Both the position numbers and the translations under genes were made by a program. Of a DNA stretch of 64,000 nucleotides, positions 2,749 through 26,373 are shown in pieces; position 1 is the first letter of the stretch, and the number at the start of each line of letters is the position of its first letter. Below the pieces are notes generated by a model. It was not told the origin of the DNA and searched no databases. It worked only from the letters and a program-made list of their open reading frames with translations. The stretch covers positions 64,001 through 128,000 of the forward strand of contig CBDBKE010000003.1 of the NCBI GenBank assembly GCA_965206645.1, written 5' to 3'. Origin of the DNA: Terriglobia bacterium. Lineage in GTDB: Bacteria > Acidobacteriota > Terriglobia > JAJPHL01 > JAPKYU01.

Positions 2749-3062
2749 ACCCCATATTGGCCGCTTCGGCTGCACCTGTTGTCACCCGCGTTGCGGCTGC
2801 TTTACCGCCATCCTGTCACTCTCGCCCGGCCTAACCATCGGCTTTCGGTTGTTTGCCCTTCTCCGCTTCCCGTCACCCTCTACGGCCCGCTACGCTGCAT
2901 CCCTTCCGCCAGATGCGGCGCCTGTCAGTCGGGTTGCTTGCCGCTTCGCTGGACCGCGCTGGGAGACGGGGGCGCTGATCCTCCCGGCCAGGGTTCATCC
3001 ATTCCCGCCTGTATGGGTGAGCGGAAATGCTCTAAACCCTAACCTCGAAGGAGAAAAAACAC

Positions 3063-3314
3063 ATGGCAAACCACAGGCCAATTAATGAAATCCGGATCGG
3101 GCGAATCAAGGCAACAATATGGCTCAACGGCACCGAAGATCAGCCGCGCCACAACGTCTCTTTCGGTCGAGTCTACAAAGACGGCGAGACCTGGAAGACC
3201 ACGCACAGCTTCGGGCGCAATGACCTGTTGGTGCTTGCGAAAGTTGCCGACGTGGCTCACACGCTCATCTTGGAGATGGAGAACAAAGACACCGAAACCG
3301 GTGCCGGGTTCTAG
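3063..3314 (+). CDS. Small PC4/Whirly-like putative ssDNA-binding protein typical of mobile elements
   Basis: GAAGGAG RBS. Pattern EIRIGRIKATIWxN...NVSFGRVYKDGETWKTTHSFGRNDLLVLAKV. Followed by a hairpin. Confidence 0.6.
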   Translation: MANHRPINEIRIGRIKATIWLNGTEDQPRHNVSFGRVYKDGETWKTTHSFGRNDLLVLAKVADVAHTLILEMENKDTETGAGF

Positions 3315-3884: not shown

Positions 3885-4337
3885 ATGTTGAACTCTCAGG
3901 AGTCAACGCAAGGAATGAGGATGGCGTTCTATCGATTGTTTTTGTACGTCCCGGAAGAATCATGCTTCGCGTTTCGGATTCGCCTCTGTCCTGATCGGGA
4001 GCAGCTTGGCACTGTTGCGGCACCAACCGCCGTCATTTCGCTATCGAGTGACGAGGCGCTGAGCCTCTGTCTCGCCGAACTCGGCGTCACAGGCTATTCC
4101 CGATTTCGTGACGATACGCTCGCCGGGCCGCGTTTCGACTACATCCAGAACACACCGGAGGATATTGTTGCCGCTATCAGAGCAAAGCCGTTCTCAAGCG
4201 TCAGTCATGTAACCTTAATCGCGAAAGACACACCGCCCAGTGAGATGCGCCGTCGCCTCGACTCCCTACGCGAGAAGATACCCGACACCGTTGAAATCGT
4301 TGAGCCCGCTGAGACAAGTTCGGTTAGGCTCTTATGA
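3885..4337 (+). CDS. Hypothetical protein
   Basis: 150-aa ORF with normal composition; no recognised motif. Confidence 0.45.
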   Translation: MLNSQESTQGMRMAFYRLFLYVPEESCFAFRIRLCPDREQLGTVAAPTAVISLSSDEALSLCLAELGVTGYSRFRDDTLAGPRFDYIQNTPEDIVAAIRAKPFSSVSHVTLIAKDTPPSEMRRRLDSLREKIPDTVEIVEPAETSSVRLL

Positions 4338-4494
4338 AAGGGGATTATAAAGAACGCTTGACGAGGATGGAATCAGCTATGACTTCGCCCAAAAAGCGCG
4401 TAGAGCTTGCAAGGAGCTGACGGCGTGAGTGCAACGAAGTTCTTGTTGGGAAAGAGTCTCGGAAGGATACTACTAAATCGGAGAGAAACCCTAA

Positions 4495-4536
4495 TTATCG
4501 GGTTTCAATTGGAAAGTCGGGGCGTCCTGTTTCCAT
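4495..4536 (-). CDS. Putative micropeptide METGRPDFPIETR
   Basis: AAGGAGGT 6 nt before ATG; TAA stop; paralogous to the next two ORFs. Confidence 0.55.
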   Translation of the reverse strand: METGRPDFPIETR

Positions 4537-4691
4537 TCCATCACCTCCTTTTTTAGTTGTACCCAGGGGGTCGTGTAGCCCTCTGAGCCAGCCTTCCGAG
4601 ACTCATTCCCTACAAGACTGCACCTACCATGATCCGTTGTTCTTGTAGGGGAGAGACCCCGAAAGGATACTAAATGGGGGAGAAACTTTAA

Positions 4692-4736
4692 TTATCGGGT
4701 TTCAATCGTAAAGTTTGCGTATTCCGGTTCGTGCAT
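4692..4736 (-). CDS. Putative micropeptide MHEPEYANFTIETR
   Basis: AAGGAGGT 6 nt before ATG; TAA stop. Confidence 0.55.
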   Translation of the reverse strand: MHEPEYANFTIETR

Positions 4737-4899
4737 TTCCGTACCTCCTTTTTAGTTGTACTCAGGTCGTTCTGTCCGGCCTGAGCCAAGCTTTCGGGGT
4801 CTCTCCCTTGCAAGACTGTACGATACTCTGATCTATTATTGTTCTTGTAGGGAAAGAGTTCGGGAAGGGATTCTGAATTGGAGAGAAACTCACATTTAC

Positions 4900-4938
4900 T
4901 TATCGGGTTTCAATTGGACAGTTAGGTCGTGGTTCCAT
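4900..4938 (-). CDS. Putative micropeptide MEPRPNCPIETR
   Basis: AAGGAGGT 7 nt before ATG; TAA stop; alternative in-frame ATG at 4944. Confidence 0.55.
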   Translation of the reverse strand: MEPRPNCPIETR

Positions 4939-5018
4939 TTCCATCACCTCCTTTTGTAGAGTACTCGGGTCTTATTCACCCGAGTCATACTTTCGAGGTC
5001 TCTCCACTACAAGATCGC

Positions 5019-5024
5019 ATTATA
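5019..5024 (-). promoter_or_regulatory. Candidate -10 box (TATAAT) reading into the hairpin/micropeptide array
   Basis: Perfect TATAAT 4 nt outside the arm of unit 3. TATCGT lies at the same offset outside unit 2. No clear -35. Confidence 0.4.
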
Positions 5025-5147
5025 TCGGCTATCCAATTTATACCTTGCCGTTAGCGAGCTGTCTGCATTAGGCTGAAGCCTGCTGCAACGAGTCCGCTGA
5101 GTGCTTAAACGCCCAGTGGCCTTAATTTAATAAGGACGATTAATGCC

Positions 5148-5678
5148 ATGCAACGTGAGAATCTGAAGGGAGTCTTGCCGGTAGTCTCGCTGTTACTTTT
5201 TTTGGGTGTGTTGGGATATCTAACCAGAGACCCTTCGGCAAGAGTCCGGCAGCAGTCTACCCAAGAGGAACGAGCCTATCAAGAGAAGTTGAAAGCGATT
5301 CAGGAGCAAGTGCAAGCTCGCGTAAAGAAATACGGGGAACAGCATGAAGCTGAAGAAGCGGCGAAACGGAAGGCTGAAATACGTCGTCGTTTGGAACTGA
5401 TGAATGCCGATCTTTCGGGTATATGGAATACGGGTGTTGGGTGGGCGTACATGTACCCGAATGGAAAGGTAACACTGTACAGTCGTGATTGCACCGTGAA
5501 ACGACAAGCCACATGGAAGTATGAGTACGGGGCTCTGACAATACACCAGAGGCATCTGAACAGGAACTTTCAAATCTCTTTTGCAAACGTCATAGGGTTC
5601 GAGGGGGTTGGCTTGACTTTTGATACGGGTGGGGAATGGATTCGCCTTAGCAAGAAAATGGACGAACGGCTCTGTTGA
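5148..5678 (+). CDS. Hypothetical membrane-anchored protein (N-terminal TM, coiled coil, beta-rich C-terminal domain)
   Basis: Hydrophobic VLPVVSLLLFLGVLGYL; AAGGA RBS. Confidence 0.65.
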   Translation: MQRENLKGVLPVVSLLLFLGVLGYLTRDPSARVRQQSTQEERAYQEKLKAIQEQVQARVKKYGEQHEAEEAAKRKAEIRRRLELMNADLSGIWNTGVGWAYMYPNGKVTLYSRDCTVKRQATWKYEYGALTIHQRHLNRNFQISFANVIGFEGVGLTFDTGGEWIRLSKKMDERLC

Positions 5679-5727: not shown

Positions 5728-6051
5728 ATGTCACAAGACGAACGAGATGCCATCATTGGAAAGACTGGTCGACTGTACCAGGCGGAAACGAAAAGGCGGG
5801 CTTGCCTGAAGACGAAGATATCCTCTATAGCTGACGCTCTTAAAATCGTTCAGGAGGCGCTTGACGGCTGCTTCGACTCCGATTCCGATTATGAGTATTC
5901 TGATAAGAAGAGGCTCATCCAGCGCCGTTACGGTGGTCGGCAAGTTGAGTTACCGGCAAGCGAGGAGTTACACCAGGTGTTTCTCGACGTTGCCGCTACA
6001 GAACGTAGGATCGAGGAGCTTAGGCAGCACCCGAGAAAACGGTTCCGATAG
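5728..6051 (+). CDS. Hypothetical helical protein
   Basis: GGGAGG RBS; 107-aa ORF. Confidence 0.6.
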   Translation: MSQDERDAIIGKTGRLYQAETKRRACLKTKISSIADALKIVQEALDGCFDSDSDYEYSDKKRLIQRRYGGRQVELPASEELHQVFLDVAATERRIEELRQHPRKRFR

Positions 6052-6334
6052 CCCCCAGGAATGGAGAGGTGTCTGAAAAAGCTGGTTCTGGAAGCCGAGC
6101 GACGGGCTTTCAGGACCCGGCGAGGACCGCTCGGAGCCCCCAGAGAGAAGAACTGTGCTGGAAGGGCTCAGTTGGAGGCCAATGGTTGTATACTCACGAG
6201 TGCCGGAGGGCCAAAAAACTAATTCCGGCTGAATGAAGTGGATACCCCATTCGCGTGATATAATGGAGCCGGTTTCTATGCCTGCTTCGCTTTTGCGTTT
6301 TGTCAAGACCTGAGCCGAAACCGGACATAGTTCT

Positions 6335-6842: not shown

Positions 6843-9239
6843 ATGCTATTGAATACTATCGCGCGTTGCTTCTTTCTGTCCGCCCTGCTGATGTTGGTTG
6901 CCTTAAAGGCCTGGGGTCAGCAGAGTGGGCAGATCTCAGGGAAGGTCTCGATGAAGGAGACGGGCGGACCGCTCCACGGGGCGCGCGTCTTGATTGTTGA
7001 GCTGGGACGAAGCACGCTCAGCGATGACGATGGCTCGTACGAATTCAATCGCGTCCCCCCAGGCAATTATCACGTGGTCGCCCATCTGGAAGGTATCTTC
7101 ACCGAAGCAGCCAGTGTTGTAAGCGTTGCAGAGGGGGGCAAAACGACCGTCGATTTCCTTCTGAAGCTGGCGACGCTACGAGATACGATCACTGTCACGG
7201 CTGGCGAGAAAAGTGAGCCCGTTTTCGAAGCGTTTCAGAATGTCGAATCGATAGGAGCGTTGGAACTTGCGAGAACCCCTGATGTCTCCCTCGGCGAGAT
7301 GCTTGACCATAGGGTCGGGACTGGGATCGCGAAGCGCAGTTTCGGACCGGCAGCGGCCAGGCCGATCATCCGCGGATTTGACGGCGACCGTGTGCTCATC
7401 ATGGAAGATGGCATTCGGACCGGGACGTTGTCATCGCAATCGGGAGACCACGGCGAACTCATCAACACCGCCCAACTCGAACGGCTGGAGATCGTCAAGG
7501 GCCCGGCCACACTTCTGTACAGCGGCAACGCCATGGGCGGCACCGTGAATGCTGTGAGTCGACACCATGATATGCACAGCCACGCGCATCAGGGATTGCG
7601 GGGTTTCCTCCTGGGTTCCGGAGGGTCCAACAATAGCCTGGGTGGCGCAAGCGCCGGTTTTGAATACGGTGTCGGGAAATGGATGATCTGGGGACAAAGC
7701 GGCGGCGTACGCAGCAGCGACTACACTGCGCCGGATCAGGGCGAGATCTACAACAGCCGTTCCCGCACAACCAATGGCGGTGGGGGATTTGGCTGGTATG
7801 GCAGCAAGACATTCTTCAGCCTTGAGGCCCGGTACGCCGAGGGTTCCTACGGCGTGCCATTCGTTGCGGATTTCCATGGTCGCCATGATGACGAGCACGA
7901 CGAAGATCATGGGGGGGTGGACGAAGATGAAGAACATGACAAGGATGAGAACGGACATGAGGAAGAGGAGGAACTCGATCGCGTTTCGCTAGACTCCGCT
8001 CGTACGCACTTTCGCTTCAACTGGGGCCTGAGAGATCTCGGCGCGGCCATCAACAGCTTCACATTGAAGCTGGGCTACACCGACTGGATACACGACGAGG
8101 TCGAGTTCTTCGAGGACGGCAATTTCGAAGTCGGCACGACGTTTAGCCAGCAGCAGGTCATCTACAGGGGGGTCTTTGAGCAAGGCCATGTCGGTAAGTG
8201 GAGCGGCCGTTTCGGTTTCTGGGGAATTGATCGCGATTACGAGGCTGTGGGCGAGGAAGCCCTTTCGCCGCCGGTCAGCCAATCCGGCTTTGCGGTCTTT
8301 GCTCTGGAAGAAGTGGACTTTGAAACGGTGAAGTTTCAGTTCGGCGGCAGGCTGGAAACCCAAAAGTACACGCCGGCATTCGCAGAACGTGAAATGGACG
8401 AAGGGGGGGATCATCACGAAGAAGAGGGTCATGACGAAGAAGAGGGGGAACAGTACGAGCCGCCAGATGCGATTCAGCGGACTCTGACAGGAGTCTCAAT
8501 ATCTGCGGGTCTTCACGCCAATACGTGGAAGGACGGTGCGCTCGTGATGAACTACGCACACTCGTATCGCGCGCCGGCTCTGGAAGAGCTCTACAATTTT
8601 GGACCGCACGCAGGCACACTGTCGTTTGAAATCGGTGATCCGCAGCTCGAAGCGGAAACGGGCAACGGCGTGGACCTCTCCCTTCGCCACAAAGGCGGCC
8701 TTATACGAGGAGAGCTCAACCTTTTCTACTACGATTTCGACAATTTTATCTTTCCTTTCGCACCCGGCGGGGAGGAAGATGGGCTGCCAGTGATCGAGTT
8801 CACCCAGCGCGACGCACGATTCATGGGAACCGAAGCCGGTCTGGATGTCTCCATTCACCCCAACCTATGGCTGAATCTGGGTGCGGACTTTGTCGATGCG
8901 CAAGAAACCAACCTGAACACTCCTCTGCCCCGCATACCACCGTTGCGGGGCAAGATCGGTTTCGATGTCGACTACAGCGGCTTCCGCTTCACACCGCAAC
9001 TGATCCTCGCGAGCCAGCAGCATCAGACCTATACCAGAGAAACACGCACTCCCGGCTATGCCGTTGTAAACCTGAAGGCTTCCTATACGATTGTTCGGCA
9101 GCACTTGGTGCATCAATTCTCTGTGAATGTCTTCAACATCGGCGACCGCCTTTACCGCAACCACTCGTCGTTCATCAAAGACCTCGCGCCGGAAATTGGC
9201 CGTGGTGTGCGGTTCACCTACACCATGCGTTTCTTCTAG
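6843..9239 (+). CDS. TonB-dependent receptor with His/Glu-rich loops (ZnuD-like metal uptake)
   Basis: CarboxypepD-like N-domain. Plug RPIIRGFDGDRV and LEIVKGPATLLYSGNAMGG. Two H/E/D-rich loops. C-terminal F. Confidence 0.9.
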   Translation: MLLNTIARCFFLSALLMLVALKAWGQQSGQISGKVSMKETGGPLHGARVLIVELGRSTLSDDDGSYEFNRVPPGNYHVVAHLEGIFTEAASVVSVAEGGKTTVDFLLKLATLRDTITVTAGEKSEPVFEAFQNVESIGALELARTPDVSLGEMLDHRVGTGIAKRSFGPAAARPIIRGFDGDRVLIMEDGIRTGTLSSQSGDHGELINTAQLERLEIVKGPATLLYSGNAMGGTVNAVSRHHDMHSHAHQGLRGFLLGSGGSNNSLGGASAGFEYGVGKWMIWGQSGGVRSSDYTAPDQGEIYNSRSRTTNGGGGFGWYGSKTFFSLEARYAEGSYGVPFVADFHGRHDDEHDEDHGGVDEDEEHDKDENGHEEEEELDRVSLDSARTHFRFNWGLRDLGAAINSFTLKLGYTDWIHDEVEFFEDGNFEVGTTFSQQQVIYRGVFEQGHVGKWSGRFGFWGIDRDYEAVGEEALSPPVSQSGFAVFALEEVDFETVKFQFGGRLETQKYTPAFAEREMDEGGDHHEEEGHDEEEGEQYEPPDAIQRTLTGVSISAGLHANTWKDGALVMNYAHSYRAPALEELYNFGPHAGTLSFEIGDPQLEAETGNGVDLSLRHKGGLIRGELNLFYYDFDNFIFPFAPGGEEDGLPVIEFTQRDARFMGTEAGLDVSIHPNLWLNLGADFVDAQETNLNTPLPRIPPLRGKIGFDVDYSGFRFTPQLILASQQHQTYTRETRTPGYAVVNLKASYTIVRQHLVHQFSVNVFNIGDRLYRNHSSFIKDLAPEIGRGVRFTYTMRFF

Positions 9240-9276
9240 AGGCGCACCCGATCCTGACTGACCGGCGAGACTGTGG

Positions 9277-9705
9277 GTGCATTCCATCCCCGGCAGGTCA
9301 AGGAAGGTATCTCGCAGCTCGAAAATGTCGGTCCACCGTCGGTTGCCGCTGGGGGCGGTCACGCTGAGCTTCTCCGGGAGGACTGCCAAGACGACCGCCG
9401 AGGGAGCGTGGCAATCGACCGCGGTTGGACGCCTTTGGCGTCTGAAGACAACCTCCCCCGGCGCTCGCGCGATGCGCATTCATTTTCGGGACTTCGCCAT
9501 CGGGGCGGGCAGCCTCTGGCTCCACTCGGCGAGCGGGCAGGTCGCCGGGCCTTACAGCGGCTCGGGTCTGTACGGGGACGGAGACTTCTGGAGCGGTATT
9601 GTTTTCGGCGACAGCCTGACGATCAAGTATCTGCCCGATGGAGAGTCGGCGGAAGAAGCCGTGCCGTTCCGAATCGTGGCGATCAGCCTGTCCATTGCGA
9701 ATTGA
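9277..9705 (+). pseudogene. Fragment of a lysyl-endopeptidase/trypsin-like protease N-terminal domain
   Basis: LWRL...SPGARAMRIHFRDF...GPYSG.G...FWS...GDSLTIKY; no signal peptide or catalytic domain. Confidence 0.55.
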
Positions 9706-9900
9706 TATGTTGAGCGATTCTACCCGTGACCGCTGCCCCAGTGAGGCGAGTGCACACTGGCGGAGTACCCTCGGTAGCAGCGAAACAATCAGATCAGACA
9801 ACCGCTCCGCGTTGACAAGCTCAAACAGCGAATGGTTTCGTAGGAAGTGCCCGCCTGCCGATGTCCGCCGGTTACACAGGGAGCACCAGTCTTTGGAGAA

Positions 9901-10989
9901 TCAGGCAGTCATTGGGGTGTGATAGAGGCCTCTGCAGTGGCGTTGCCATCCATAGGAATGGAGCCTGGCGACTGGTCGTGGTATAGGCGTGACTGGATCA
10001 GGCGTTCTCCCTTCCAGTCCAGTGTGCAAGCGATACGCATTGAAATATGTCCTGAAATCGAGCAGCTTGTTCTCCAGGTCCGCCGTCGTCCAGAACAACC
10101 TGCGATCCAAATGCTCGCGTCGAATCGTGCCGATCAACCGTTCCACAAAGGGATGGGACAGGGGAACATAGGGGACGGTTTTGATTTCGATTACCTCCAG
10201 GATCCGCAGATTGGCTTGCCACTGCCCAAACCGATACAGGGGATCATGGTCGGAGCTGAGGTAGTTGGGCATACAGGGTTGCCATCGAATGGCGCGGTTG
10301 AACATGCGGCAAAGTGCCACGCCATTGACGGTTCCGGCGTGGACGCCGAACCCAATGATCCGACGGGTGTATTGATCCATGACGACCAAGACCCAGCGGG
10401 TCCGCAACGTGGCCGATTCGCACCGGAACAGATCTATACTCCAGAGGCTGTCCTTCATGTGGCCAATGAAGGTCAGCCAGGATGGACCACCGGAGTCCTT
10501 TTTCGGCCGATAGTGGCTGGCGAGAATCCTTCGAACAACGTCTTTGTCGATGAGGATGTCGAAAGCCAAGGCAATCTGCTGAGCGATTCGCGGGCAGCCC
10601 CAGGTGGGATTGCGCTGCTTCATCTGGACAACAGCGTCGATGAGTTCTTTGTTGGGTCCGTTTGGTCCGGGCTTACGCCGGTGCTTGGATGAAAAGAGCA
10701 GGCAATATTTTCGGTTCCTCAGAGCCCGGTGGAGACCCAAAAGAGTCGAAGGCTTCAGCACGATTGCTGAGCGGATCAGGCGGGCGGGGCGGATGAAGAG
10801 AGCACATAAACCGGCGACAAGGCGATCTGAGGTGCGTAGATTGGGTGACCGCTGTCGCGAACGATTGAGAATCAGGAGTTGTTGCTTGACATGAACGGAC
10901 TCAGCCACCACAGAACGGAAGCAACCCGGACCTGCAAGTCGCGCAAGAGTAACGATTAAATGAACGAAAAGGATGACAAGATCACGCAT
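9901..10989 (-). mobile_element. rve (integrase core) DDE transposase, IS481/IS3-superfamily-like
   Basis: NPTWGCPRI HTH, WSIDLF, LSSDHD, FVERLIGTIRRE...YFNAYRLH. Confidence 0.85.
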
Positions 10990-11072
10990 CTTGGCATTCT
11001 ATCAAATCTTGATAATGGCAGAATATTGGCCCGTTTTAGCAATTCGCCAGGGACAGGCATGTCCGATTCTCG

Positions 11073-11711
11073 ATGAACGATCACTTCGCGACCGAACAGG
11101 ATGCACGCAACGCGGTCGACGATTACATTCGAGGTTGGGAACTCGACGCAGCTCTAGTACGGGGCCCGAACGCGTTCAAGCTCCGTTTCGACCGAGCAGA
11201 GATCGAGGATCGAAACCCGACGCAGGGCGTTATGTACGCACAAGCGGGATCTGTTCGTTTCAACTTTACCGTAAGCGCGGCACAGGCCACCGTCTCGCCG
11301 CGTACTTATCCGAGGCCGCCGTCGGCACGCCTCAAGCGAACTCCCGATGTCGAGAGCATGTTCTACCGTTACGTCGGGCATCGTGAGGGCAAGGAGCCGC
11401 TCACGGCCATGGCGTATTTCTGTCTGACCGTCCTGGAGGCCTCTACCGGAAAGCGCCAAGGCCAACGCGCGGCGGCGGCGAAGCAATACCACATCAACAG
11501 ATGGGTCCTAAATCAGCTCGCAGAACTGAGCACGACCAAAGGTGGTGCCCACGCCAGAAAAGCAGAAGGCGTCCATCGAGACTTGACCCAGCAGGAAAGA
11601 CAGTTCCTAGAAGCGGCTGTCGAGAAGATCATCCGCAGGGCGGCAGAGGCAGGTGACGATCCGACCGCGTCTCTCGAGGAAATCACGATGCTCAACTTTC
11701 CACTTAAATAG
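11073..11711 (+). CDS. Hypothetical protein (possibly 5'-truncated by the adjacent transposase)
   Basis: 212-aa ORF with coding-like composition. Confidence 0.55.
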   Translation: MNDHFATEQDARNAVDDYIRGWELDAALVRGPNAFKLRFDRAEIEDRNPTQGVMYAQAGSVRFNFTVSAAQATVSPRTYPRPPSARLKRTPDVESMFYRYVGHREGKEPLTAMAYFCLTVLEASTGKRQGQRAAAAKQYHINRWVLNQLAELSTTKGGAHARKAEGVHRDLTQQERQFLEAAVEKIIRRAAEAGDDPTASLEEITMLNFPLK

Positions 11712-11794
11712 GGAACACTGCCAGCTTTAAGATGTGAGCGGGGCTGCTCCAACTGAGTCAACTGACATGAGTTTCCAGAAACCACAGTCCCACA

Positions 11795-11926
11795 GGTACT
11801 GTCAAGTTGAGCAGAATTTGCCCCGTTTTGCGGAAGGATTCTGCTGGATCAGAGACTGAGAATCAATGACTTAGCAGTGGCGGCGGGCGGCGAGAATGCC
11901 GCCAAACTGCTTAACTTGACAGTACC
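11795..11926 (+). mobile_element. MITE copy 1 (IS6-type ends)
   Basis: TIR GGTACTGTCAAGTT/AACTTGACAGTACC; near-identical to 14122-14252 and 26243-26373. Confidence 0.9.
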
Positions 11927-12240
11927 TTTAACAGAGCTCATTCGTTGATCCACGGCGAAGCCGAGCAGAAGCGGAAGGCAGGGAACCCGTGGGACCGCGT
12001 TGAGGGTCGAATTGAGAGCCTTATCCAAGGCAGAGTGCGCAGCCGTGACCGTGGTGGGCCTGATCGATAACGAGGATTGAGTAAACAGAGAAGCAATGGA
12101 ATGAAAACGAGACGGCTTGGTCTCGGTGTTGCGCTTCTGGTGGGCGGGATGATCCCCTCTCAGAGTGCCACCGGAACCGGAATTACCGCTATCCAACCAC
12201 AGCCGAACGAACTCGAAGCACGGGGTGTCTGTGCGGGAGA

Positions 12241-12669
12241 ATGGCCATGACGATCACTGGGAAAGCAACAACCAACTATTGCAAGAACTGTCATTTTCTG
12301 GCGAAAACCAGCATTGATTGTGGTGGCGGCACACATCGATCTTCATGGGATAAAGAAGAGCGCGATAACTATCATTCGCCCGATCATCATAGTGCAGAAT
12401 GTGCCAAAGGTATTTGGAGCACAAGAATCGATCCGCGCTTGGAAGAATCCCTTAGTAGCATTTTGTTAGAAAATAGAAAGGACAATTGTTTTTATATCGA
12501 AACTCACGACGGAATGTCGTTTGAAGCAGCCAGTGAGCTTCATCGGCTCAGGAACGACAATCGCCAGCTAAAGCGCAGCTATCGATACACGCAAATTGGA
12601 TTGTGGATCGCGGCTGGTAGCTTGCTTGCGAATCTCCTGATGAAAGTTTTTAAGGAAATCACTGGCTGA
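12241..12669 (+). CDS. Hypothetical Cys-containing protein with C-terminal TM helix
   Basis: CKNCHF, further Cys residues, hydrophobic C-terminus; lower GC. Confidence 0.6.
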   Translation: MAMTITGKATTNYCKNCHFLAKTSIDCGGGTHRSSWDKEERDNYHSPDHHSAECAKGIWSTRIDPRLEESLSSILLENRKDNCFYIETHDGMSFEAASELHRLRNDNRQLKRSYRYTQIGLWIAAGSLLANLLMKVFKEITG

Positions 12670-12676
12670 TCTGCAT

Positions 12677-13738
12677 GGCGTTGTTGCAGAAATCTGACTC
12701 CATCCCCAACGCTCTCCCTCCTGATAGGCTAGGGGATGGGCAAAAGCGACTACACCTTCCGATATAAGGTTCGCAACTGGCCGGAGCACAACCGGGCTCT
12801 GGTGAAACGTGGGCAGCTGACACTGTGGTTCGACACGGAGGCAGTCGCTGCCTGGCGTCATCCAGGACCCTTCGAAGGGCGAGGCCGGCCCAAGGTCTAC
12901 GCAGATGCGGCGATCCAATGTGCGCTGGTCCTGAATTCGGTGTTTCACCTCAACCTACGGACCACTCAAGGGTTCCTTCAATCCATCGTGGCGCTCATGG
13001 CTCTCGACCTCCCAGTGCCCAACTACAGCACGGTGAGCCGAAGGCAAAGCGCCGTCGACGTCCGACTGAGTGTAGGGCCCACGGATCGACCACGACATGT
13101 CGTCATCGATTCGACGGGCCTGAAGATCTACGGAGCCGGTGAGTGGCACATCAGAAAACACCGAACCCTCCGCCGTAGGACATGGCGAAAGCTCCACCTA
13201 GGCATCGATGAGACGACGAAAGAGATCGTTGCGATGGACCTGACTGCGAGCAACGTCCACGACGCCCGAAGGCTCTCTTCGTTGCTGTCTAAGACTCCTG
13301 GTTCGATCGGGCAAGTCTCCGCAGACCGGGCCTACGACACGGGTTCCTGCTACGAGGCCGTACTCCAGCACGACGCTATCGTGACGATCTTGCCGCGACG
13401 CAATGCACGATGCAGCCGAGACTCTCATCCGCCTCCGTGGCGTGCGATGCGTGATACCCATCTCCGGCGTATTAGGACGCAGGGCCGTTATGAGTGGCGG
13501 AAGTCGAGTGGCTGCACTCGCCAGAGCGTGGCGGAGAATGCGGTCTCACGGTACAAGGCGATACTCGGGGTAAGCCTCTCGGCCCGCACGGTCAAGAACC
13601 AAAAAGTCGAAGCCGCGATCAAGTGCGCTGTGCTGAACCGGATGGCGGAGCTTGGAATGCCACGATCGGAGCGCGTGTACTGAGGCGGATGAGCTTCTCG
13701 GCCCGGTTCGCCGCGAGCGCGAATTACGCAACAACGCC
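12677..13738 (+). mobile_element. IS5-family (IS903 group) element; transposase 12736-13683
   Basis: TIR GGCGTTGTTGC/GCAACAACGCC. YKVRNWxxxNxALxxRG, IDSTGLK, WRKLH, ADRAYD. No TSD seen. Confidence 0.92.
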
Positions 13739-14121
13739 GCCTTCAAGATCACCTGAAGTGGACTCGATGAACTTGGCAACTTCTTCGTCGATCGATTCAA
13801 TTTCCTCGTCGATTAATTCTTCTCGGCGTTTCAGTGTCATCGTGGCAATCAACCTTTAGCCAGTATCATCTGAGAGATTTTAGATGTAGCTTAGCGTCCA
13901 CCATCAAGTAATGCGGTGATGTAGAGTATGTCCTGCGATTGTCCCGCCAGCGTTCGCCAACGTCTGTTCCCATTGCTGCTGATAGCCTATTCCTTCTTGC
14001 GAAAGCAGGCCGAGCTTCTCCTCCTTTTCCGTTAAGGCACGGAACTTGTCGACACCCGGATAGGATGGGAGCACGAAAGTTTCTTTACGATGCAGAATCG
14101 GTGGATTCAAAGAGTCCGAAT

Positions 14122-14252
14122 GGTACTGTCAAGTTAAGCAGTTTGGCGGCATTCTCGCCGCCCGCCGCCACCGCTAAGTCATTGATTCTCAGTCTCTGAT
14201 CCAGCAGAATCCTTCCGCAAAACGGGCAGATTCTGCTCAACTTGACAGTACC
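14122..14252 (-). mobile_element. MITE copy 2 (inverted)
   Basis: Reverse complement of copies 1 and 3, with the same TIRs. Confidence 0.9.
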
Positions 14253-14310
14253 TTACGGGATCGAGCTGACCCGCGACGAGGTGGACCGCATCGAGTCGAT
14301 CGCGGGTTGA

Positions 14311-14679
14311 CAGCCTGTCGTGAAGTTGCCTGAAGCTGTAGGGCGCTCGATGAGCGCCCCTGGGCCGTCGCAGACCCCCAAGGATGGTCTGACTTCCACC
14401 GCAGGCTGCTGACCGCTCGTGGCCGGCCGGACCGTCGGCGGCCCGGCTCCCCGGCTCCCCGGGCTCGATCGAGCCCAGCGGGCCGTGGCAGAATGAATGG
14501 ATCAGGAACTTCAGCGCTCGGAAGCCCCGTGGGCGCCCAGAGGGTTACGGCGGCATCGCGCCATCTGCGGTGTTGCCGCTCCTCACGGATGGAAGAGCAT
14601 CGCCCTCGTCGCGGCGCCTAACATCCGGCGCGATGGCGCTCGTAACGCGACCCCGCAGACTTCCACCACGGGCTGTTAG
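14311..14679. repeat. Small palindromic MITE-like elements with CAGCC...GGCTG-type ends
   Basis: CAGCCTGTCGTGAAGT pairs imperfectly with GACTTCCACCGCAGGCTG (~14391) and GACTTCCACCACGGGCTG (~14658); internal hairpins. Confidence 0.4.
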
Positions 14680-14680
14680 G

Positions 14681-14775
14681 CTCTCGCCAGTCCTCATGTC
14701 CCTTCCTCCGTCATGCGTTGCTCTCGAACTGAGGTCCCTTCCCTCCACCGGCATTACCCGGCTTCCTTGGTATTG
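14681..14775 (-). mobile_element. Group II intron remnant (domain III to start of domain IV)
   Basis: Minus strand ACC-AAGGAAGCCGGGTAATGCCGGTGGAGGGAAGGGACCTCAGTTC matches the typical DIII motif; no RT ORF. Confidence 0.7.
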
Positions 14776-14948
14776 CGGAGACAGGCCTACTGCGGGGATG
14801 GCTGCCGGAAGAGAGCGCAACTGCAACAACATCGCAACGCCAACCGGAAACACCAGGACAGCCCGGAAGGACGGCTCGATCACCGGGACCGGCAGCGGGC
14901 CTACCGGAAACGGCTCCGCCGCCGCGTGACGGATGCAACTTCCCCCGG
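14776..14948 (+). pseudogene. Fragment of an IS21-associated accessory ORF
   Basis: YCGDGCR...ANRKHQDSPEGRLDHRDRQRAYR motif, as recalled from small ORFs preceding istA. Confidence 0.5.
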
Positions 14949-15081
14949 TATGAACGCCGGAGCAATAATAGACCAGGGAGCGCCGCGTAAGCGGCGGTTT
15001 CTGGCGGTGCAAAATTAGACCAGCGCAGTTCGATTCCATCAAACATTGTGATTCTGATGTGTTTTGTGAAACACCGGAGGT

Positions 15082-16581
15082 GTGCACACAGTGGAACTCT
15101 ATGCGCGTGTTCGACGAGCAGTTCAGGCTGAGGGGATCAGTGAACGGGAGGCGGCGCGGCAGTTCGGGCTAGCCCGCGAGACGGTCCGCAAGATGCTGCG
15201 GTACTCGATCCCTCCGGGCTATCGGCGGCAGCAGCCGGCGCGGCGGCCGAAGCTGGATGCCTGGGTGGGGATCATCGACCAGATCCTGGAGCAAGATAAG
15301 GCCCAGAGCAAGAAGCAACGCCACACGGCCAAGCGGGTTTTTGAGCGGCTGCGGGAGGAGCACGGATTCCCGGGCGGCTACACCATCGTGAAGGACTACG
15401 TGCGGCTGCGGAAGCTGAGCCAGCGGGAGATGTTCGTGCCGCTGGAGCATCCACCGGGGGAGGCCCAGGCCGACTTTGGCGAAGCGCAAGTGGTGATCGG
15501 CGGGGTGGAGCGCAAGGCGCACTATTTCGTGATGGAGCTGCCGCAATCGGACGACTGCTTCGTGATGGCGTTTCCGGCTGAGACGACCGAAGCGTTCTTA
15601 GAAGGGCACAACCAGGCGTTCGGCTACTTCGGCGGAGTGCCTCGCACGATCCTGTACGACAACACCAAGCTGGCGGTGAGGCAGATCCTGGGTGACGGAA
15701 CACGGAACAAGACGCGGGCGTTCTCCGAACTGCAGAGTCACTACCTGTTTGCGGAGAAGTTCGGACGACCGGGCAAGGGCAATGACAAAGGGAAAGTGGA
15801 AGGACTAGTGGGTTACGTGCGGCGGAACTTCCTGGTGCCGGTGCCGCGGTGTGCCAGCTGGGAGGAGTTGCACGCGAAGCTGCGGGAACAGTGCACCCGG
15901 CGGCGAGAGCGGCGTCTGCGAGGACATCAAGAGACGATCGGCGAGCGGTTCGCGAAGGATCAACAGAGGCTGCTGCCCCTGCCGGCGACGCCCTATGAGG
16001 CCTGCGACAAACGGACCACACGGGTGACGTCACTGTCGCTGGTGCGGTATCGATCCAACGACTATTCGGTGCCGGTGGCTTGGGGGCACCGGGAGGTGCT
16101 GGTGAAGGGATTCGTCGAGGAAGTGGTGATCTGTGCAGCGAGCGAAGTGATCGCACGCCATGTCCGGAGCTAGGAACGGGAAGAGATGATCTTCGATCCG
16201 TTGCACTATCTGGCGCTGCTGGAGCAGAAGCCGAACGCGTTGAACCAGGCCGCCCCCCTGGCCGGCTGGGAGTTGCCGGAAGGCTTCGCGCAACTGCGGC
16301 GGCTGATGGAGGCGCGGTTAGGCAAGAAGGGCAAGCGGGAGTATGTGCAGGTCCTGCGACGGCTGGAGACGTTCCGTTGGACGGAAGTGTCGCTGGCCGT
16401 CGAGGACGCCTTGCGGCTGGGGGCGATCTGGTCTGACGCGGTCAAGCATCTGCTGCTGGGCCGGATCGAGCAGCGGCCGGCGCGGCTGGACCTGGAGCAC
16501 TATCCGCACCTGCCGGCGACGCAGGTGGCCACCACAGCCGCCGCCGACTATCTGACCCTGCTCCGGGAAGGAGTCTGCTGA
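15082..16581 (+). pseudogene. istA: IS21 transposase with in-frame amber stop at 16171-16173
   Basis: AQADFG, ILYDN, KGKVE; the frame continues after TAG into ORF 16186-16581. Confidence 0.85.
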
Positions 16582-17345
16582 TGGACACGCCCCAGGTGTT
16601 GCTGGAACACCATCTGAAGGCCCTGCAATTACCCACCTTTTTGCGTGAGTACGACAAGGTGGCGCAGCAGTGCGCTGCCGAGGGCGTGGACTTCCCGCGC
16701 TACCTGCTGCGGTTGACGGAGCTGGAGCTGCTGGACCGGGAACGGCGCGCCACCGAGCGGCGCATTCACCAAGCCAGGTTCGACGTGGTGAAGAGCCTCG
16801 ACAGTTTCGATTTCCTGGCCCTTCCGTCGCTGAATAAGGCCTTGGTGCTCGAGCTGGCCCGAGGCGAGTTCATCGAACGCAAGGAGAACATCCTGGCTTT
16901 AGGGAACTCGGGCACGGGAAAAACCCACATTGCGTTGGCGCTGGGACTGGCCGCCTGTCAGAAAGGGTTCCGGGTCCGGTTCACTACGGCGGCCTCCCTG
17001 GCGCATGAGCTGATCGAGGCCAAGGACGAGCGGCGCCTGATGCGGTTCCAGAAGATGCTCTCCAGTTTCGAGCTGTTGATCATTGACGAGCTGGGTTTCG
17101 TGCCGCTATCCAAGACTGGGGCGGAGTTGCTGTTTGAGGTCTTCAGCCGGCGCTACGAACGCAGCGCCACCGTGGTGACCAGCAACCTGCCGTTCAACGA
17201 ATGGACGGAGGCCTTCGGATCGGAGCGGCTGACCGGAGCCCTGCTGGATCGTCTCACCCACCATGTCCACATCCTGGAGATGAACGGGGAAAGTTGCCGG
17301 CTCAAGGACAGCAAACGAAGGCGTTCCGGAAAGCCTCGCGCCTGA
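16581..17345 (+). CDS. istB: IS21 helper ATPase
   Basis: Walker A GNSGTGKT, LLIIDELG, TSN, LLDRLTHH. Confidence 0.95.
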   Translation: MDTPQVLLEHHLKALQLPTFLREYDKVAQQCAAEGVDFPRYLLRLTELELLDRERRATERRIHQARFDVVKSLDSFDFLALPSLNKALVLELARGEFIERKENILALGNSGTGKTHIALALGLAACQKGFRVRFTTAASLAHELIEAKDERRLMRFQKMLSSFELLIIDELGFVPLSKTGAELLFEVFSRRYERSATVVTSNLPFNEWTEAFGSERLTGALLDRLTHHVHILEMNGESCRLKDSKRRRSGKPRA

Positions 17346-17670
17346 TCTCACCCAATACTGGGCGACGAGTTGCGAGGGCGGCTTCCACTCCAGCCTAACC
17401 GCGCCGCCCTGCGGGCGTCGCAGGCCTCCGCTCCAACCGCCCCCGCAACTCCCTCTCAAATCAAAGCTTCCACCACCCCTGAACTGGTCTACTTTCTCTC
17501 CGCCGGAGTGGTCTAGTTTTACTCCGCCCTTGACAAAGCGCCGCCGTCGATGCGATCAACGGCCGCTATGGCCGCACCGTCATCGGCTACGGCCAGTGTG
17601 GCGATCCGGGTGGCTATACCGGAGCCAAGATCGCCTATGGCCGTATTCCCGATTGGGAGGACTTTCAGTA

Positions 17671-17925
17671 ATGCCGCTCCAGTTAGGAGATTATGCCGAC
17701 GTGGGAGACTGGTATTTCATCGCCGTATGCGGGGCCTGCGGCCGTGAAGCAATCTTGGAGCCGGTCGATATCCTGGCCCATGCGGGGACAGGAAAAGTGC
17801 ATCGCGGTATGAACCTGAGTGACCTTGAGGCTCTCTTGCGTTGTCGGGACTGCCAGTGCAGAATGGCGCGTCTCGAAGCGGTCGCCAGAATTCCTAAGCA
17901 GGCCTTCGTCGCAGGGATGCTCTGA
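17671..17925 (+). CDS. Small Zn-ribbon hypothetical protein
   Basis: GGAGG RBS; CGAC...CRDC. Confidence 0.65.
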   Translation: MPLQLGDYADVGDWYFIAVCGACGREAILEPVDILAHAGTGKVHRGMNLSDLEALLRCRDCQCRMARLEAVARIPKQAFVAGML

Positions 17926-17972
17926 GGCAATGGCTTCCTGAAGAATAGATTCTCTCTCACTTTCGCTGGCAC

Positions 17973-18014
17973 AAAAATCCCCGGCCGGGTCAGGTGACCT
18001 GACCGGCCCTTTTT
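17973..18014. terminator. Probable bidirectional terminator hairpin
   Basis: AAAAA...GGCCGGGTCAGG-TGA-CCTGACCGGCC-CTTTTT. Confidence 0.5.
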
Positions 18015-18240
18015 GTACCAAGTGGAAAGAGAGAGAATCCACTTGAGGAGGAAGTCAGGTCAGCTGCCCGGGGCCTGTGAGGTTTTTATTTGCAACTGCT
18101 GTGATCAGCCCGAAGATCAATGCGATTGCGGCCGTTCTTGCGCCCTCTGCCACTCGTTTTATGGAAATCGGCTCTGTGAGGACGGCTTATACTATTGTAA
18201 CGATTGCCGCGACGCCAGTGATTATCGTACCCAGGATTAG
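18013..18240 (+). CDS. Cys-rich small protein or remnant (possible Zn finger)
   Basis: CNCC...CDC..SCALCH...RLCEDGLYYCNDC; start codon uncertain. Confidence 0.4.
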   Translation: MYQVERERIHLRRKSGQLPGACEVFICNCCDQPEDQCDCGRSCALCHSFYGNRLCEDGLYYCNDCRDASDYRTQD

Positions 18241-18398
18241 GTGTGACGGTTCGGGGATTGAACCGGTGTTCCTTGCTTCTACGGGTGACGCCGAGATGAG
18301 AAGTATCCGCGGATGCCGAAGGAAACAGATTTTTCGGCTCGTTATGTGTAGCCTAGCGGAACGAAAACGACGTTCCGATGTTTTTCTTCCTAACGTCC

Positions 18399-21300
18399 TC
18401 AGAAAGGAATCGAGATTCCTAGCATCATGCCTAGATCGATCATGCGGTTGGGGGTTTCCCGCCTGATCCATTCCAATTGGAACTTCGCGGGCTGCGCTGG
18501 CAGCCCGCGAGAAAGCAGGCTGAATTCGGTGCCCACGCGCAGATCGCGCCCATAGTCGGCAAGTTGCAGGCGGCTGTAGGGCGTCAGCAAACCCCGTCCG
18601 CCGAAGATGTCCATCCCGTAGGCCACCTCGCTGCTCGTGCTGGTCTGGGAGGCGTTGGACATGTAGCCCGAGCCCATGGGACGGGTGACCAGGGCCGAGT
18701 TGTTCCACAACGTCGTCCTGCCACCCCCATCGTTTCCGCGCGAAGACATCATCGACAGTTGCAGACCCCGACGTTTCTCCCCCGAGTCCCAGCTTACCTG
18801 CATTCCCAGTCCTAAGTCGCGGTAGTCACTTTCACGCACCAGCAGCATCCGGCCGTGCGACGCGATGCCCAGACCGCCGGCCGCATCCAGATAGCCTAGA
18901 CGGAAGCCGGCTTCGGCTCCAGAACCCCGATCCGCGTCGCCCGCGTCGTGGCGGTACCCAAGTTCTGCCTTAATGCTTAGCGATCTCTCCGCTTCCAGAG
19001 GCTTGTCGTGGACCATTTCCAGCATCATCCGGGTCCGGCTGGCTTGGCCACTTACATTTTCGATGTCCTTCCAAGCTTTGGTTCCGAGGCGTGCAGTGAA
19101 AGAATCTAAAACAACGCCCACCTCCGTGTTGCCCCGCTTGGCCAGCACCGAGCGCATCCCGCCCGAGAACATACGAAAGTCGGAAGCTAAGTCGTGAGCC
19201 CGGCGCGGCTCATTGACATCAACTTCACCTCTTCCCAAGCCTCCAATGACCCACGTACTGAAGCGCTCGTTGGGCTGCCAGTACAGATACGGATGAGCAG
19301 TGTTCATACCATTCCTAAACATCCCATGGACCCCATCGGCGTTGTAATTGATACGAGCAAAGCTTCGCATGAAGGAGAGGCCGACGAGCATCTGTTCGCT
19401 GTTGTAGAAGTCCAGTCCAACGTGAGCGGCCCCCATGACACCGCGATAGTCCATCCCGCCCCGGGTGATATTCCCGTTGAAGTTTTGCAGGTCGCCCTGA
19501 ACCCACAGAGCTACACTCCCACTCCCGTCGTTGCCCCTGGTGCTTTCTCCCATTTGGAGGTTGAAGGAAGCCTGGGAAAAGATCGGTTGTCGAGCCCTTA
19601 TCCCGGAGAACTGGCGAGCCACAAGCGTTGTGTCGGCCGTGGATGTCCTTTGGAGCGTAACGTGCCCGTAGGCCGCTTGGGTGGGCGCGATGCCATAGTC
19701 GGGAGCCAAGGAGTTATGCAAGCTGCCTGGTCGGATCGAGCCCATCGACGGACCAGCGCCCTCGGCCAGCCTGGGGGGTGCGAAGCCGAATCTATCGGCC
19801 TCTGGCATGTGATTTAAAGCACCGGCCCTGCTGAGACCCGAACCGTTGCTGCCGGTCTGGCCGGCAGACAGGCTTCCCCCCGTGTTCGGACCGCGTGCGG
19901 ACAGCCTGTTCCGCATCAACTGGCGCTTGTGCTGGAATCGAGACTGGATCGCCGTCTGCGCGCTATCTCCCACCGAACGGGCAGTTACCGCCAGCAGGAT
20001 CTTCAGCGATGCCGAAAACTGCTCTGCGCTGCGTTGCTGGGTGAACTTCACCGTGGTCTCTGAGGGGTCGCCTTCGCTGACCGCCTCCGGCAGATCCCCG
20101 AATCCAAGGACAATACTCTCGCCCGGATCATCCTCCTGATCCGCCGGCGCGGTCACCTGGAAAGTGACCACGGTCGCGCCGACCTCGAATACGATCGACG
20201 CCGGCACCCCGCCGTAGTCCTGGCTCGTCGCACCTCCTTGCGGCGTCACTACTAGCGGCACTTCCACCCGGCGGTCCGCAGCCGGGGAGATGTTCACATT
20301 GATGCTGGCCGGATCGCCACCTTCGGCAATTGTGTGCTCGGCCCGCGCAAAGCTTACCGCCAGCTCCGGCAGGTCAGCGTCCACGATGGTGAGGGTGGCC
20401 GTGGCCGTCTCACCTTTACTGACCCCCTCCGGCAGCGTCCCGAAGCCCAACTCTATCGTCTCATCGTCGCTGTCGGTGTCCTCGTTGGCCACGATCATGA
20501 AGGTCTTGGAGAGGTCTCCAGGAGCAAAATTCAACGTTCCATCGGTGAGACCGGAAACCGTGTAATCGTCCGCCTCGGTCGCGCCTTGCGGCATCAGCGT
20601 GATCGGAATCGTGAGGTCCTGGTCGGAGGTCCGGTTCAGCATCACCTTCAGCGTCACCGGATCGCCACCTTCGGTCGTGCTGTAGCTCGCCAAGTCGAAC
20701 GCCACCGTCAGGGCCGGCGGAACGTCGTCGTCGGTGATGGTAAGGGTGGCCGTGGCTGTCTCACCTTGGCTGACCCCCTCCGGCAGCGTCCCGAAGCCCA
20801 ACTCTATCGTCTCATCGTCGCTGTCAGTGTCCTCGTTGGCCGCGATCATGAAGGTCTTGGAAAGGTCTCCGGGAGCAAAACTCAACGTCCCATCGGTGAG
20901 ACCGGAAACCGTGTAGTCGTCCGCCTCCGTTGCGCCTTGCGGCATCACCGTGATCGGAATCGTGATGTCCCGGTCGGACGCACGGTTCAGCGACACCTTC
21001 ACCGTCACCGGATCGCCACCTTCCGTCGTGCTGTAGCTCGCCGGGTCGAACGCCACCGTCAGGGCCTGCCTGGGTAGGGTAACCGCATCCCTGACCGCGG
21101 CGGTCGGCTGGCTGGTCACGGCTTCCTCGGTGCCGATGCCGTCGGTGAAGCTCACCGTGACCGTGATCCGCTTGCCGACCTCATTGTTGGTCAGCCTGTA
21201 GCTTAAATCCATTGCCCCGGCAATATTCGTTCCGTCGGCCTTCCACTGATACACGAAGTCGCCCAGGCCGTCGGCATCTTGAATGTCGGTCGTCACTGCC

Positions 21301-24050: not shown

Positions 24051-24082
24051 CGTTGTGGAAGACCAGACGCATGCGTCTCCAC

Positions 24083-24887
24083 GGTACTGTCAAAGTTAGC
24101 GTTCGTCGAGCGAGCCGGTACTCGGGATCGTGATCTCAGTTCGAGTCAGGCGGCGATCGTGACTGCATCCCAAATGAGAAAAGAGCGTCCTCGTAGCTCC
24201 CGATGATGCACCGCTCGCACCAGGTGACGGCCAACGCGGAAGAGGTTGCGGACGAGCCCATGCACGGACAAGAATCGTTGTGCCTGCCCGGGAGATTTGA
24301 ACCGGCGCATTTGTCGCTCGCGTTGCCGTGTGGGCTGGTGGGAGACTTCGGCGCGATTGTTCTCGTATCGGTCCGTGCGATGGGCGACGGACGGCATGAC
24401 CGCTCGGTGCGCAGCCCTGTAGCTGCTCAGCTTGTCGGTGACCAACCGCCCAGGCGTACGCTCCTGGCCCTTCAACAGCTTGCGGGAAAAGAGTGTAGCC
24501 GCCCGACAGTCGCGATGCGACTGGACGAGGATATCGATGACGTCACCATCTTGACCGACGGCACGCCAGAGATAGCGCCGCTGTCCCTGGATGGTGACGA
24601 AGACCTCGTCCAGGTGCCAGATGTCGCCCAGCCGGCCCTGTCGACGCTTGAGCCGGCGAGCGTATACTGAACCGATCGTGAGGCACCACAGCCGGATCGC
24701 TTCGTAGGACACCGTAATGCCGCGTTGGGCCAGGAGATCTTCGACATCGCGAAAGCTCACACCGAAGCGGTGATACAGCCAGACGGCGTGGCTGATAATG
24801 TCGGGTGGGAATCGATATCCATGGTAGCTCAGCGTGTCGCGTTTCATCGGCCAAGTCTGCCACGCTCCCACTGAACTTGACAGTACC
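24083..24887 (-). mobile_element. IS6-family element; transposase 24146-24847
   Basis: TIR GGTACTGTCAA(A)GTT. YRFPPDII, WHLDE, LVTDK, NNRAEVSH. Confidence 0.95.
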
Positions 24888-24893
24888 ATAAAT

Positions 24894-25700: not shown

Positions 25701-26242
25701 TGCCTAGTCGGCAGACGTACCGGAAGCTTTGCGGCGAGATTCTGGAGAAACTTCAAGAGGGTACGGACCCCTACAAGATTCAAAATGAAGAAATCTATAC
25801 AGCACTGCCGTAGGCCGTCGCAAAGCCTTCGGCGGAGCGACGCGGTGATTGTTTGAACCCGCATCAATATTGACGTTGGAGATTAGCAGAAGGATGCCGC
25901 CGACCATTCATGAAGAGAATCCGGGTTAATTTTGTTTGTAACAGCTGCGAAGCGACCAATGTATTGCCGATGGAATCCTTTGAGAGAGAGACTGGGGTAT
26001 GCTCTTCCTGCGGCTCCACGGTTCGCAACCGGAGCGTTATCCATCTTCTAACGAAATACCTTTTAGATTGATTGTAGAATCAGCCGCAATTGCCAGTCGA
26101 ATGTTCTGGCAGATCACGGCGCGGCGGCATCCAGTTCCCCCGGAGGCAAGGAGGAGAATACGGGAGCGGCTTCGAAGTTGAGCGACAGACTGACGATGGG
26201 CGCCGTGGAGGTGATTTTGAGCGATCCGGCAAAACTGCTGAG

Positions 26243-26373
26243 GGTACTGTCAAGTTGAGCAGAATCTGCCCGTTTTGCGGAAGGATTCTGCTGGATCAGA
26301 GACTGAGAATCAATGACTTAGCGGTGGCGGCGGGCGGCGAGAATGCCGCCAAACTGCTTAACTTGACAGTACC
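26243..26373 (+). mobile_element. MITE copy 3; truncates the adjacent glycosyltransferase
   Basis: Same TIRs and core as copies 1 and 2. Confidence 0.9.

Follow-up and report, generated by a model that had tools for sequence, protein, structure and literature searches.

A tandem array of three folded repeats with putative minigenes and an inward-facing promoter-like site in a Terriglobia bacterium

Within the window, by which we mean the whole 64,000-nucleotide stretch of a Terriglobia bacterium contig that was analysed, positions 4441–5014 hold three direct repeats whose starts are spaced by ∼200 nt. The units are 172–177 nt long and share 72–77% identity with one another (BLAST), and the GC content of the array is 47%, compared with 61% for the genome. 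Every unit is bounded by an inverted repeat of 24–26 bp, P1, which shows compensatory changes. Unit 1 spans 4441–4617, with P1 formed by 4441–4466 and 4592–4617; unit 2 spans 4641–4815 (P1 4641–4665/4791–4815); and unit 3, the weakest fold of the three, spans 4843–5014 (P1 4843–4867/4990–5014, with two bulges). In the predicted fold of unit 1, P1 closes a three-way junction from which helix P2 and a side hairpin, P6, emerge; P3 comes next, and a multiloop bears hairpin P4 and a variable hairpin. When the array is folded as a whole, every unit still pairs within itself. RNAalifold gave 56 pairs on the plus strand, 12 of them changed on both sides, and 50 pairs on the minus strand, 10 of them changed on both sides.

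The units thus folded present a conserved scaffold around a variable middle of 31–36 nt. One 15-mer is invariant (4495–4509, 4692–4706 and 4900–4914, plus strand), supplying the 3′ arm and the loop of hairpin P4; read on the minus strand it gives the codons I-E-T-R-stop, and no further copy of it was found in this genome. An assembly artefact was rejected because identical contig pieces in a second study confirm the array sequence. A MITE was also rejected, since there is one locus only and the spacers are conserved, as was an attC site, since the core-site order is missing when judged by eye.

The minus strand of each unit contains a short open reading frame behind a strong Shine–Dalgarno (SD) sequence. 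Minigene 1 (4495–4536) encodes METGRPDFPIETR and a stop codon (13 aa, GRAVY −1.18), minigene 2 (4692–4736) encodes MHEPEYANFTIETR and a stop codon (14 aa, GRAVY −1.07), and minigene 3 (4900–4938) encodes MEPRPNCPIETR and a stop codon (12 aa, GRAVY −1.34), so that all three peptides are hydrophilic. Their SDs, at 4540–4551, 4743–4751 and 4943–4954 on the same strand, are complementary to the tail of the genome's own 16S rRNA over 12, 9 and 12 nt and lie 6, 6 and 7 nt from the ATG, and each frame ends at a TAA within the invariant 15-mer. The combination of SD, ATG and frame is kept in all three units despite length changes. It arises in 2.0, 1.7 and 3.0% of 20,000 shuffles of the variable stretch of the respective units, rates that are not independent because the units are related, and of the 137 SD octamers of this kind in the genome only 28 are followed by an ATG at such a spacing. 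Judged from the sequence, the three minigenes are likely to be genuine. Across the three sequences the final four codons do not differ even at silent positions, and they overlap hairpin P4, a hint that the constraint there is on the nucleotides. On the minus strand the SD is predicted to be closed in the full fold, with an opening cost of 5.0–6.7 kcal/mol, and partly closed in nascent pieces (2.5–6.7 kcal/mol).

An earlier note on this DNA, made from the letters alone, had read the same segment on the plus strand as an anti-SD mimic, identical to the 16S 3′ end and able to pair with an upstream G-rich motif. The identity is borne out against the host's own 16S over 12, 9 and 12 nt in the three units, and the pairing with GGAG or GGGGG corresponds to the predicted helix P3. 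As a feature in its own right, however, the mimic disappears: in all three units it is what a strong SD ahead of an in-frame ORF of 12–14 codons looks like on the opposite strand, and as the complement of a real-looking SD it needs no further cause. In addition, the anti-SD/SD core is predicted to be paired on both strands, with an unpaired probability of at most 0.06 at CTCC, which speaks against the suggestion that an anti-SD sRNA acts here in trans.

The new element in our analysis is that the 5′ arm of P1 carries the best conserved sigma70-like site in the array, a predicted TTGTWG-17/18-GATWCT that points into the unit. It reads TTGTTG-17-GATACT in unit 1 (4443–4471), TTGTAG-17-GATACT in unit 2 (4643–4671) and TTGTAG-18-GATTCT in unit 3 (4845–4874), where one spacer base is bulged in the fold; all three are on the plus strand. 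Scored with a sigma70 matrix, the site ranks top by summed score and second by minimum score among 376 aligned column/strand positions, a rank that is post hoc because the site was first spotted by eye. With 7, 7 and 6 matches of 12 in units 1–3 it is a moderate site, and a threshold scan of 4200–5300 called none of the P1-arm promoter-like sites and no terminator-like site. The host rRNA promoter is TTGACA-17-TATAAA, so that the sigma70 consensus is applicable to this host. The spacer sequence varies, with compensatory changes, yet its length stays at 17, 17 and 18 nt. P1 begins 2 nt ahead of the −35 and ends at −12, −13 or −14, leaving A(−11) outside P1 in all three units. The 376-position scoring revealed no conserved plus-strand promoter 5′ of P1, no conserved outward-facing promoter-like site was among the top-scored positions, and in units 1 and 2 a −10 is missing from the mirror arm of P1 as read on the minus strand.

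From the plus-strand start predicted by this site, at about the 5′ arm of P3, to the T run is a stretch of 78, 78 and 76 nt that folds as a closed domain. The predicted short antisense RNAs would accordingly occupy 4477–4554, 4676–4753 and 4880–4955 on the plus strand (ends inferred), each a P3-closed domain ending in a U run. For the peptide mRNA, a candidate −10 is the perfect TATAAT at 5019–5024 on the minus strand, 4 nt upstream of the minus-strand start of unit 3, with neither a −35 nor an extended −10. Unit 2 has TATCGT at an equal distance upstream (4820–4825, minus strand, 4 nt), also with no −35, and no matching minus-strand hexamer lies upstream of unit 1.

The next question is which strand has been selected to fold. 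The earlier note had argued for the plus strand, on the grounds that most positions departing from Watson–Crick pairing are G.T there and would be A.C in the peptide mRNA. For the count, the five homologous helices P1, P2, P3, P4 and P6 were set by hand and the variable hairpin was left out, giving 157 cells, which on the plus strand comprise 136 Watson–Crick pairs, 12 G.T, 6 A.C and 3 others. The G.T share of the wobble and A.C cells is therefore 12/18 (two-sided p 0.24). At inner helix positions there are 10 G.T against 2 A.C (10/12, p 0.039), and the helix ends run opposite, with 2 against 4 (2/6). In P1, P2 and P6, the helices outside the predicted short RNA, the count is 8 G.T to 4 A.C, or 7 to 2 at inner positions. 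A different choice of columns, in which the side hairpin lost its base column, gave 13/17 (p 0.049); the two results, 13:4 and 12:6, mean that the bias depends on how helix ends are treated. In all of these counts some cells share a single mutation, so that there are fewer events than cells. The stems of tRNAs, with 58 G.T and no A.C, were not used as a calibration because ARAGORN brackets favour pairs.

The individual G.T pairs that had been quoted were all located: T4646.G4810 and G4648.T4808 in P1 of unit 2, two in GAAACTT/GGGTTTC, one in GAAACTC/GGGTTTC, and in the side hairpins G4567.T4582 (unit 1) and T4767.G4779 (unit 2). Left unmentioned were the A.C cells C4563.A4586 and A4561.C4588 of the unit 1 side hairpin, and four more at A4760.C4786, A4854.C5002, A4484.C4544 and A4884.C4947. 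The claimed predominance of G.T on the plus strand is thus correct in direction and borderline in strength, at 12:6 overall and 10:2 for inner positions.

Folding energies of the two strands, a comparison that the note had proposed, point the same way with similar reserve. The RNA minimum free energies for plus and minus are −81.8 and −79.1 in unit 1, −81.5 and −67.3 in unit 2, and −57.1 and −52.7 in unit 3, the plus strand being lower in all three. The gaps of −2.7, −14.2 and −4.4 compare with −0.9, −7.7 and −7.8 (sd ∼4) for dinucleotide shuffles, and only that of unit 2 goes beyond composition. Both strands fold better than their shuffles (RNA z −2.8 to −8.7). With the helix set forced, the plus strand is more stable in two of the three units as RNA and in one of three as DNA, the minus strand being the more stable as DNA in units 1 and 3. 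The RNAalifold covariation term is −0.65 for plus and +2.67 for minus. The plus strand as the selected fold is favoured over a minus-only fold by the inner count of 10:2, but it is not established, as a fold on both strands fits about equally well. The wobble bias, itself borderline, is better evidence against folding of the minus strand alone than for folding of the plus strand alone. All of these statistics rest on three related units of one locus, as no homologue was found.

The array is a real, conserved and uncatalogued element with features on both strands. Our best explanation, to which we assign a probability of roughly 0.37, is that each unit is a gene for a small peptide that carries its own antisense off-switch, in the manner of a type I toxin–antitoxin locus. 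The sequence contains, on the minus strand, a strong SD, an ATG and 12–14 codons, together with a covarying stem and an SD core paired with a downstream CUCC. The minus strand would be transcribed from the −10 just outside the stem, unit by unit or through the whole array, and the resulting 175-nt mRNA would pair its 5′ and 3′ ends and so shut the SD. In duplex DNA, the site in the stem arm would drive a plus-strand RNA of 76–78 nt across the SD, the ORF and the stop hairpin, ending at the U run, and the variable middle would make every antisense RNA specific to its own unit. The harmful or regulatory product might be the peptide, or it might be the act of translating from a very strong SD into CGA-UAA within a hairpin.

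This antisense arrangement needs only ordinary transcription and would account for both promoter candidates. Against it, the 7 to 2 excess of G.T among the inner wobbles of P1, P2 and P6, which belong to the long RNA only, runs in the wrong direction for a fold of the mRNA alone; the peptides are hydrophilic; the promoter-like site in P1 is only moderate and, like any terminator, went uncalled in the threshold scan; and the minus-strand −10 has no −35 and is absent ahead of unit 1. The extent of P1, which covers the antisense promoter from −37 to about −13, is also left without a reason. The suggestion of an antitoxin, made in the earlier note, gains from the predicted inward-pointing site in the P1 5′ arm.

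Excerpts of the cited papers describe, for type I loci, tandem repeats, 5′–3′ pairing in which a distal anti-SD takes part, and an antisense RNA that lies within the span of the mRNA (PMC8594479, PMC4147584). The array resembles Ibs/Sib of Escherichia coli and AapA/IsoA of Helicobacter in its tandem copies and short ORF with an SD; its predicted antisense RNA lies inside the mRNA, spanning the SD and the entire ORF; its mRNA strand has predicted long-distance 5′–3′ pairing and a distal anti-SD; and its variable region could confer copy specificity (as far as those excerpts of PMC8594479 and PMC4147584 extend). In contrast to these systems, its peptides have 12–14 aa, are hydrophilic and end in a nucleotide-invariant IETR, whereas a type I toxin is described, in the part of the source available, as small and hydrophobic (PMC3919570); the wobbles of its outer helices favour the antisense strand, and there is no Rfam or sequence match. 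On this conservative reading the locus would be a peptide array under antisense control, with products that are not toxins of the membrane type, which would point to another target, such as a protein-binding motif or the trapping of ribosomes or tRNA as with CreT.

A serious rival, which we rate a little below the antisense pair, shares the short antisense RNA with it and differs in the origin of the mRNA, so that the two predict different 5′ ends; the probabilities for both were set by judgement and not calculated. Here the plus strand when single-stranded, either as DNA in transfer or as read-through RNA, would fold back, and P1 would rebuild the upstream duplex of the promoter with its 3′ arm as the template. 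Taken separately, a DNA template is unlikely and a 6S-like RNA template a shade less likely. RNA polymerase would start in or beside the T run and copy the anti-SD, the complement of the ORF, and P4 into an mRNA whose first bases are A(1–4)GGAGGU; in duplex DNA the P1 promoter would make the antisense RNA instead, so that peptide expression would be confined to the folded state of the strand. The limits of P1 agree with this: it starts 2 nt before the −35 in each unit and stops in the −12 to −14 region, which is where the open complex begins to melt, with A(−11) left outside, and ∼10 of the 376 scored positions would put −12 within 2 nt of the inner end of P1 (a post hoc count). The constant spacer length with its bulged base in unit 3, the mirror arm lacking a −10 in units 1 and 2, and the inner G.T bias are in agreement. 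Unit 1 fits closely: its +1/+2 bases face the T run across an internal loop, and P3 begins at +3. A conjugative element with a T4SS and ardC lies 43 kb away, and the template strand of ardC is likewise plus. On the other hand, in units 2 and 3 the +1 would normally lie within the anti-SD, so a fold-back start there must be 2–4 nt earlier; hairpin P6 would occupy the template strand within the bubble; mismatches fall inside the folded −35, at positions 4–6, in units 1 and 2; and the forced helix set, taken as DNA, has the minus strand as the more stable one in units 1 and 3, P1 of unit 3 being weak (−5.8 kcal/mol with loop cost). The conjugative element has no relaxase by PF03432 or PF08751 and no demonstrated tie to the array, the neighbouring small gene at 3063 uses the opposite strand, the TATAAT at 5019–5024 is left without explanation, and the literature searched held no precedent for an inward-facing fold-back promoter. 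The idea that the peptide is made only from the folded template draws support from the conserved inward sigma70-like site in P1. The canonical 6S and Frpo geometries that had been invoked do not apply, as both point out of the fold and the array site points in. In the accessible portions of three reports, Frpo drives downstream genes outside the hairpin, in the leading region (PMC9849209, PMC11541004, 10.64898/2026.01.09.698686). Likeness to Frpo/ssi/ssp (F, ColIb-P9), on the same partial texts, consists in a one-strand stem that would rebuild the −35/−10 boxes with the folded strand as template; the array promoter differs in facing into the fold, away from any gene outside the hairpin, with the minigene in the loop, the units in tandem and no oriT or relaxase link. 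Were fold-back templating true, each unit would amount to a self-contained inward-facing gene whose closing stem, in a folded single strand of DNA or RNA, supplies its sigma70 promoter. A single 30-bp promoter would then read one strand in duplex DNA and the other in folded DNA, with host RNA polymerase producing mRNA off a hairpin loop. Such an array would sense single-strandedness and answer with a peptide, or else be the first 6S-like RNA to yield an mRNA.

Three further explanations were weighed. It is improbable that the product is the full-length 175-nt plus RNA, a Sib-like long antitoxin or other structured ncRNA cut from upstream-gene read-through, with the P1 promoter-like site arising by chance. 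The lower plus-strand energy in all three units, the better covariation term, the self-folding of units within the whole array and the lack of a terminator-like site from the upstream ORF to the array would suit such an RNA; yet there is no conserved plus promoter upstream of P1, no Rfam match, and the promoter-like site and its spacing are left to coincidence. We see a slim chance that the stems act as DNA with no strand preference, or that both strands fold, the G.T excess stemming from chance, from G/T-rich arms that became fixed on other grounds, or from strand-biased deamination. The overall count of 12:6 is not significant, composition explains most of the energy gap, and the G.T cells of P2 and P4 all face G/T-rich arms (the P4 arm being invariant), but this account is silent on the role of the SD, the ORF and the promoter-like site, and has the inner count of 10:2 against it. 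Very improbable, finally, is a trans-acting anti-SD sRNA, or a template array for a separate enzyme (a UG27-type reverse transcriptase, a retron or a CRISPR-like guide system). Its attraction is the conserved scaffold with a variable middle of 31–36 nt, in units close in size to the 149–167 nt of UG27 units given in the available part of that preprint (10.64898/2026.09.22.753630). The predicted pairing of the anti-SD core and the unexplained conservation of the reading frame both count against it. In the genome RVT_1 matches a single ORF, which is group II intron-like and lies on a different contig. CRISPR-like guides were rejected, as none of the variable parts is matched at length in the rest of the genome (the longest exact match is 15 nt) and the genome has no CRISPR array, only one cas1 fragment 364 kb away.

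The array is not a member of the Rfam families, 6S, Frpo as described, CreTA or the UG27 arrays, as far as the portions of the papers at hand define these. Rfam gave no match at gathering score, and at E 10 only one chance snoRNA. In 6S RNA, according to a partly accessible account, the −35-like region is apical and the −10-like region lies in the 3′ bubble, with a 5′-side template and pRNAs of 13–14 nt (PMC8876501). The array shares with 6S (RF00013) a size of ∼175–200 nt, a closing stem, a central junction with a small 3′-side hairpin and possible RNA polymerase templating; in contrast, its geometry is reversed, the 5′ side of its junction is a few bases long, and its product would be an mRNA. 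It did not match RF00013. CreT, in the excerpt of its description, has a strong SD, a mini-ORF (33 bp in Acinetobacter) and a hairpin, and its function may reside in the RNA and not in the peptide (PMC10097628). The array likewise has a strong SD, a mini-ORF of comparable size and a hairpin but, unlike CreTA with its adjacent CRISPR-Cas locus and repeat-flanked creA, no neighbouring CRISPR array, cas operon or creA-like gene. UG27 ncRNA arrays have structurally conserved, sequence-diverse units of similar size, and the words 'peptide' and 'Shine-Dalgarno' occur 0 times in the available text of that report (10.64898/2026.09.22.753630); compared with UG27- and retron-type arrays as presented there, the array locus has no RT or accessory genes. 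No description of the element was found in the mostly open-access literature searched.

No homologue of the array was found in any collection searched. The host genome has no unit besides the three, and a DNA search detected none in 60 genomes of relatives; across 400 genomes of the phylum it gave matches in six, of 22–33 nt only. An RNA model gave one hit in 150 genomes of the class, which was discarded because it is a hairpin where two convergent genes meet, and none in 150 genomes of the phylum. A pattern search returned single matches in 15 of 400 genomes, against 13 control matches (a hand count of the table). The genome samples of these several searches overlap. Exact-pattern scans returned 10 matches from genome_contigs, one from metagenome_contigs, and 0, 6, at least 120, 0 and 13 from the viral collection; none was unit-like by nhmmer, folding or RNA model, each scan being of one exact pattern that diverged relatives would escape. 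Plasmids gave one short match and phages none.

The array sits in an IS-rich island near broken defence-type ATPase genes. Positions 31–1305 encode the C-terminal portion of a defence ATPase of the AAA/RloC-like kind (PDC-S06, E 6e-27), which an upstream IS seems to have severed. The flanking ORFs at 3885–4337 and 5148–5678 have two outside relatives each and gave no Pfam or PADLOC family, weak PHROGs rows only and no viral loci; the former also had no fold match. An 83-aa gene at 2967–3314, whose product may be SSB-like, belongs to no Pfam or PHROGs family and has 17 tblastn copies in the genome, most of them in a conserved 500–900-nt module with a long leader and a post-stop hairpin; the copy in the window has lost most of the leader. 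Positions 6027–6230 are the end of a multicopy insertion-sequence-like element without a transposase, presumably IS1380-like. An element of ∼135 bp with 20-bp terminal inverted repeats, at 11794–11927 (75794–75927 of the contig, C3), has ∼30 copies among the matches listed and is probably a miniature transposon.

The conjugative element upstream of the array (C3 positions 8573–28000) lies beside a tRNA-Val fragment and encodes an integrase, a VirB11-type ATPase, VirB8, TrbL, TrbI and ardC; no relaxase was found in it with PF03432 or PF08751. Four more long copies, at 92–94% identity, are present on contig C4 and a partial copy on C1. RF00013, the 6S RNA model, had no match in this genome, which is 98% complete, nor in any of 10 further genomes of its order, but it matched 8 of 10 others of the class; the 6S RNA of the order may have diverged or been lost. 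A cobalamin riboswitch lies at 26988–27192 of the window, upstream of a TonB-dependent receptor-like ORF. Directly upstream of the rRNA promoter of the 16S gene, on contig C2, is a 12-bp tandem repeat of ∼13 copies.
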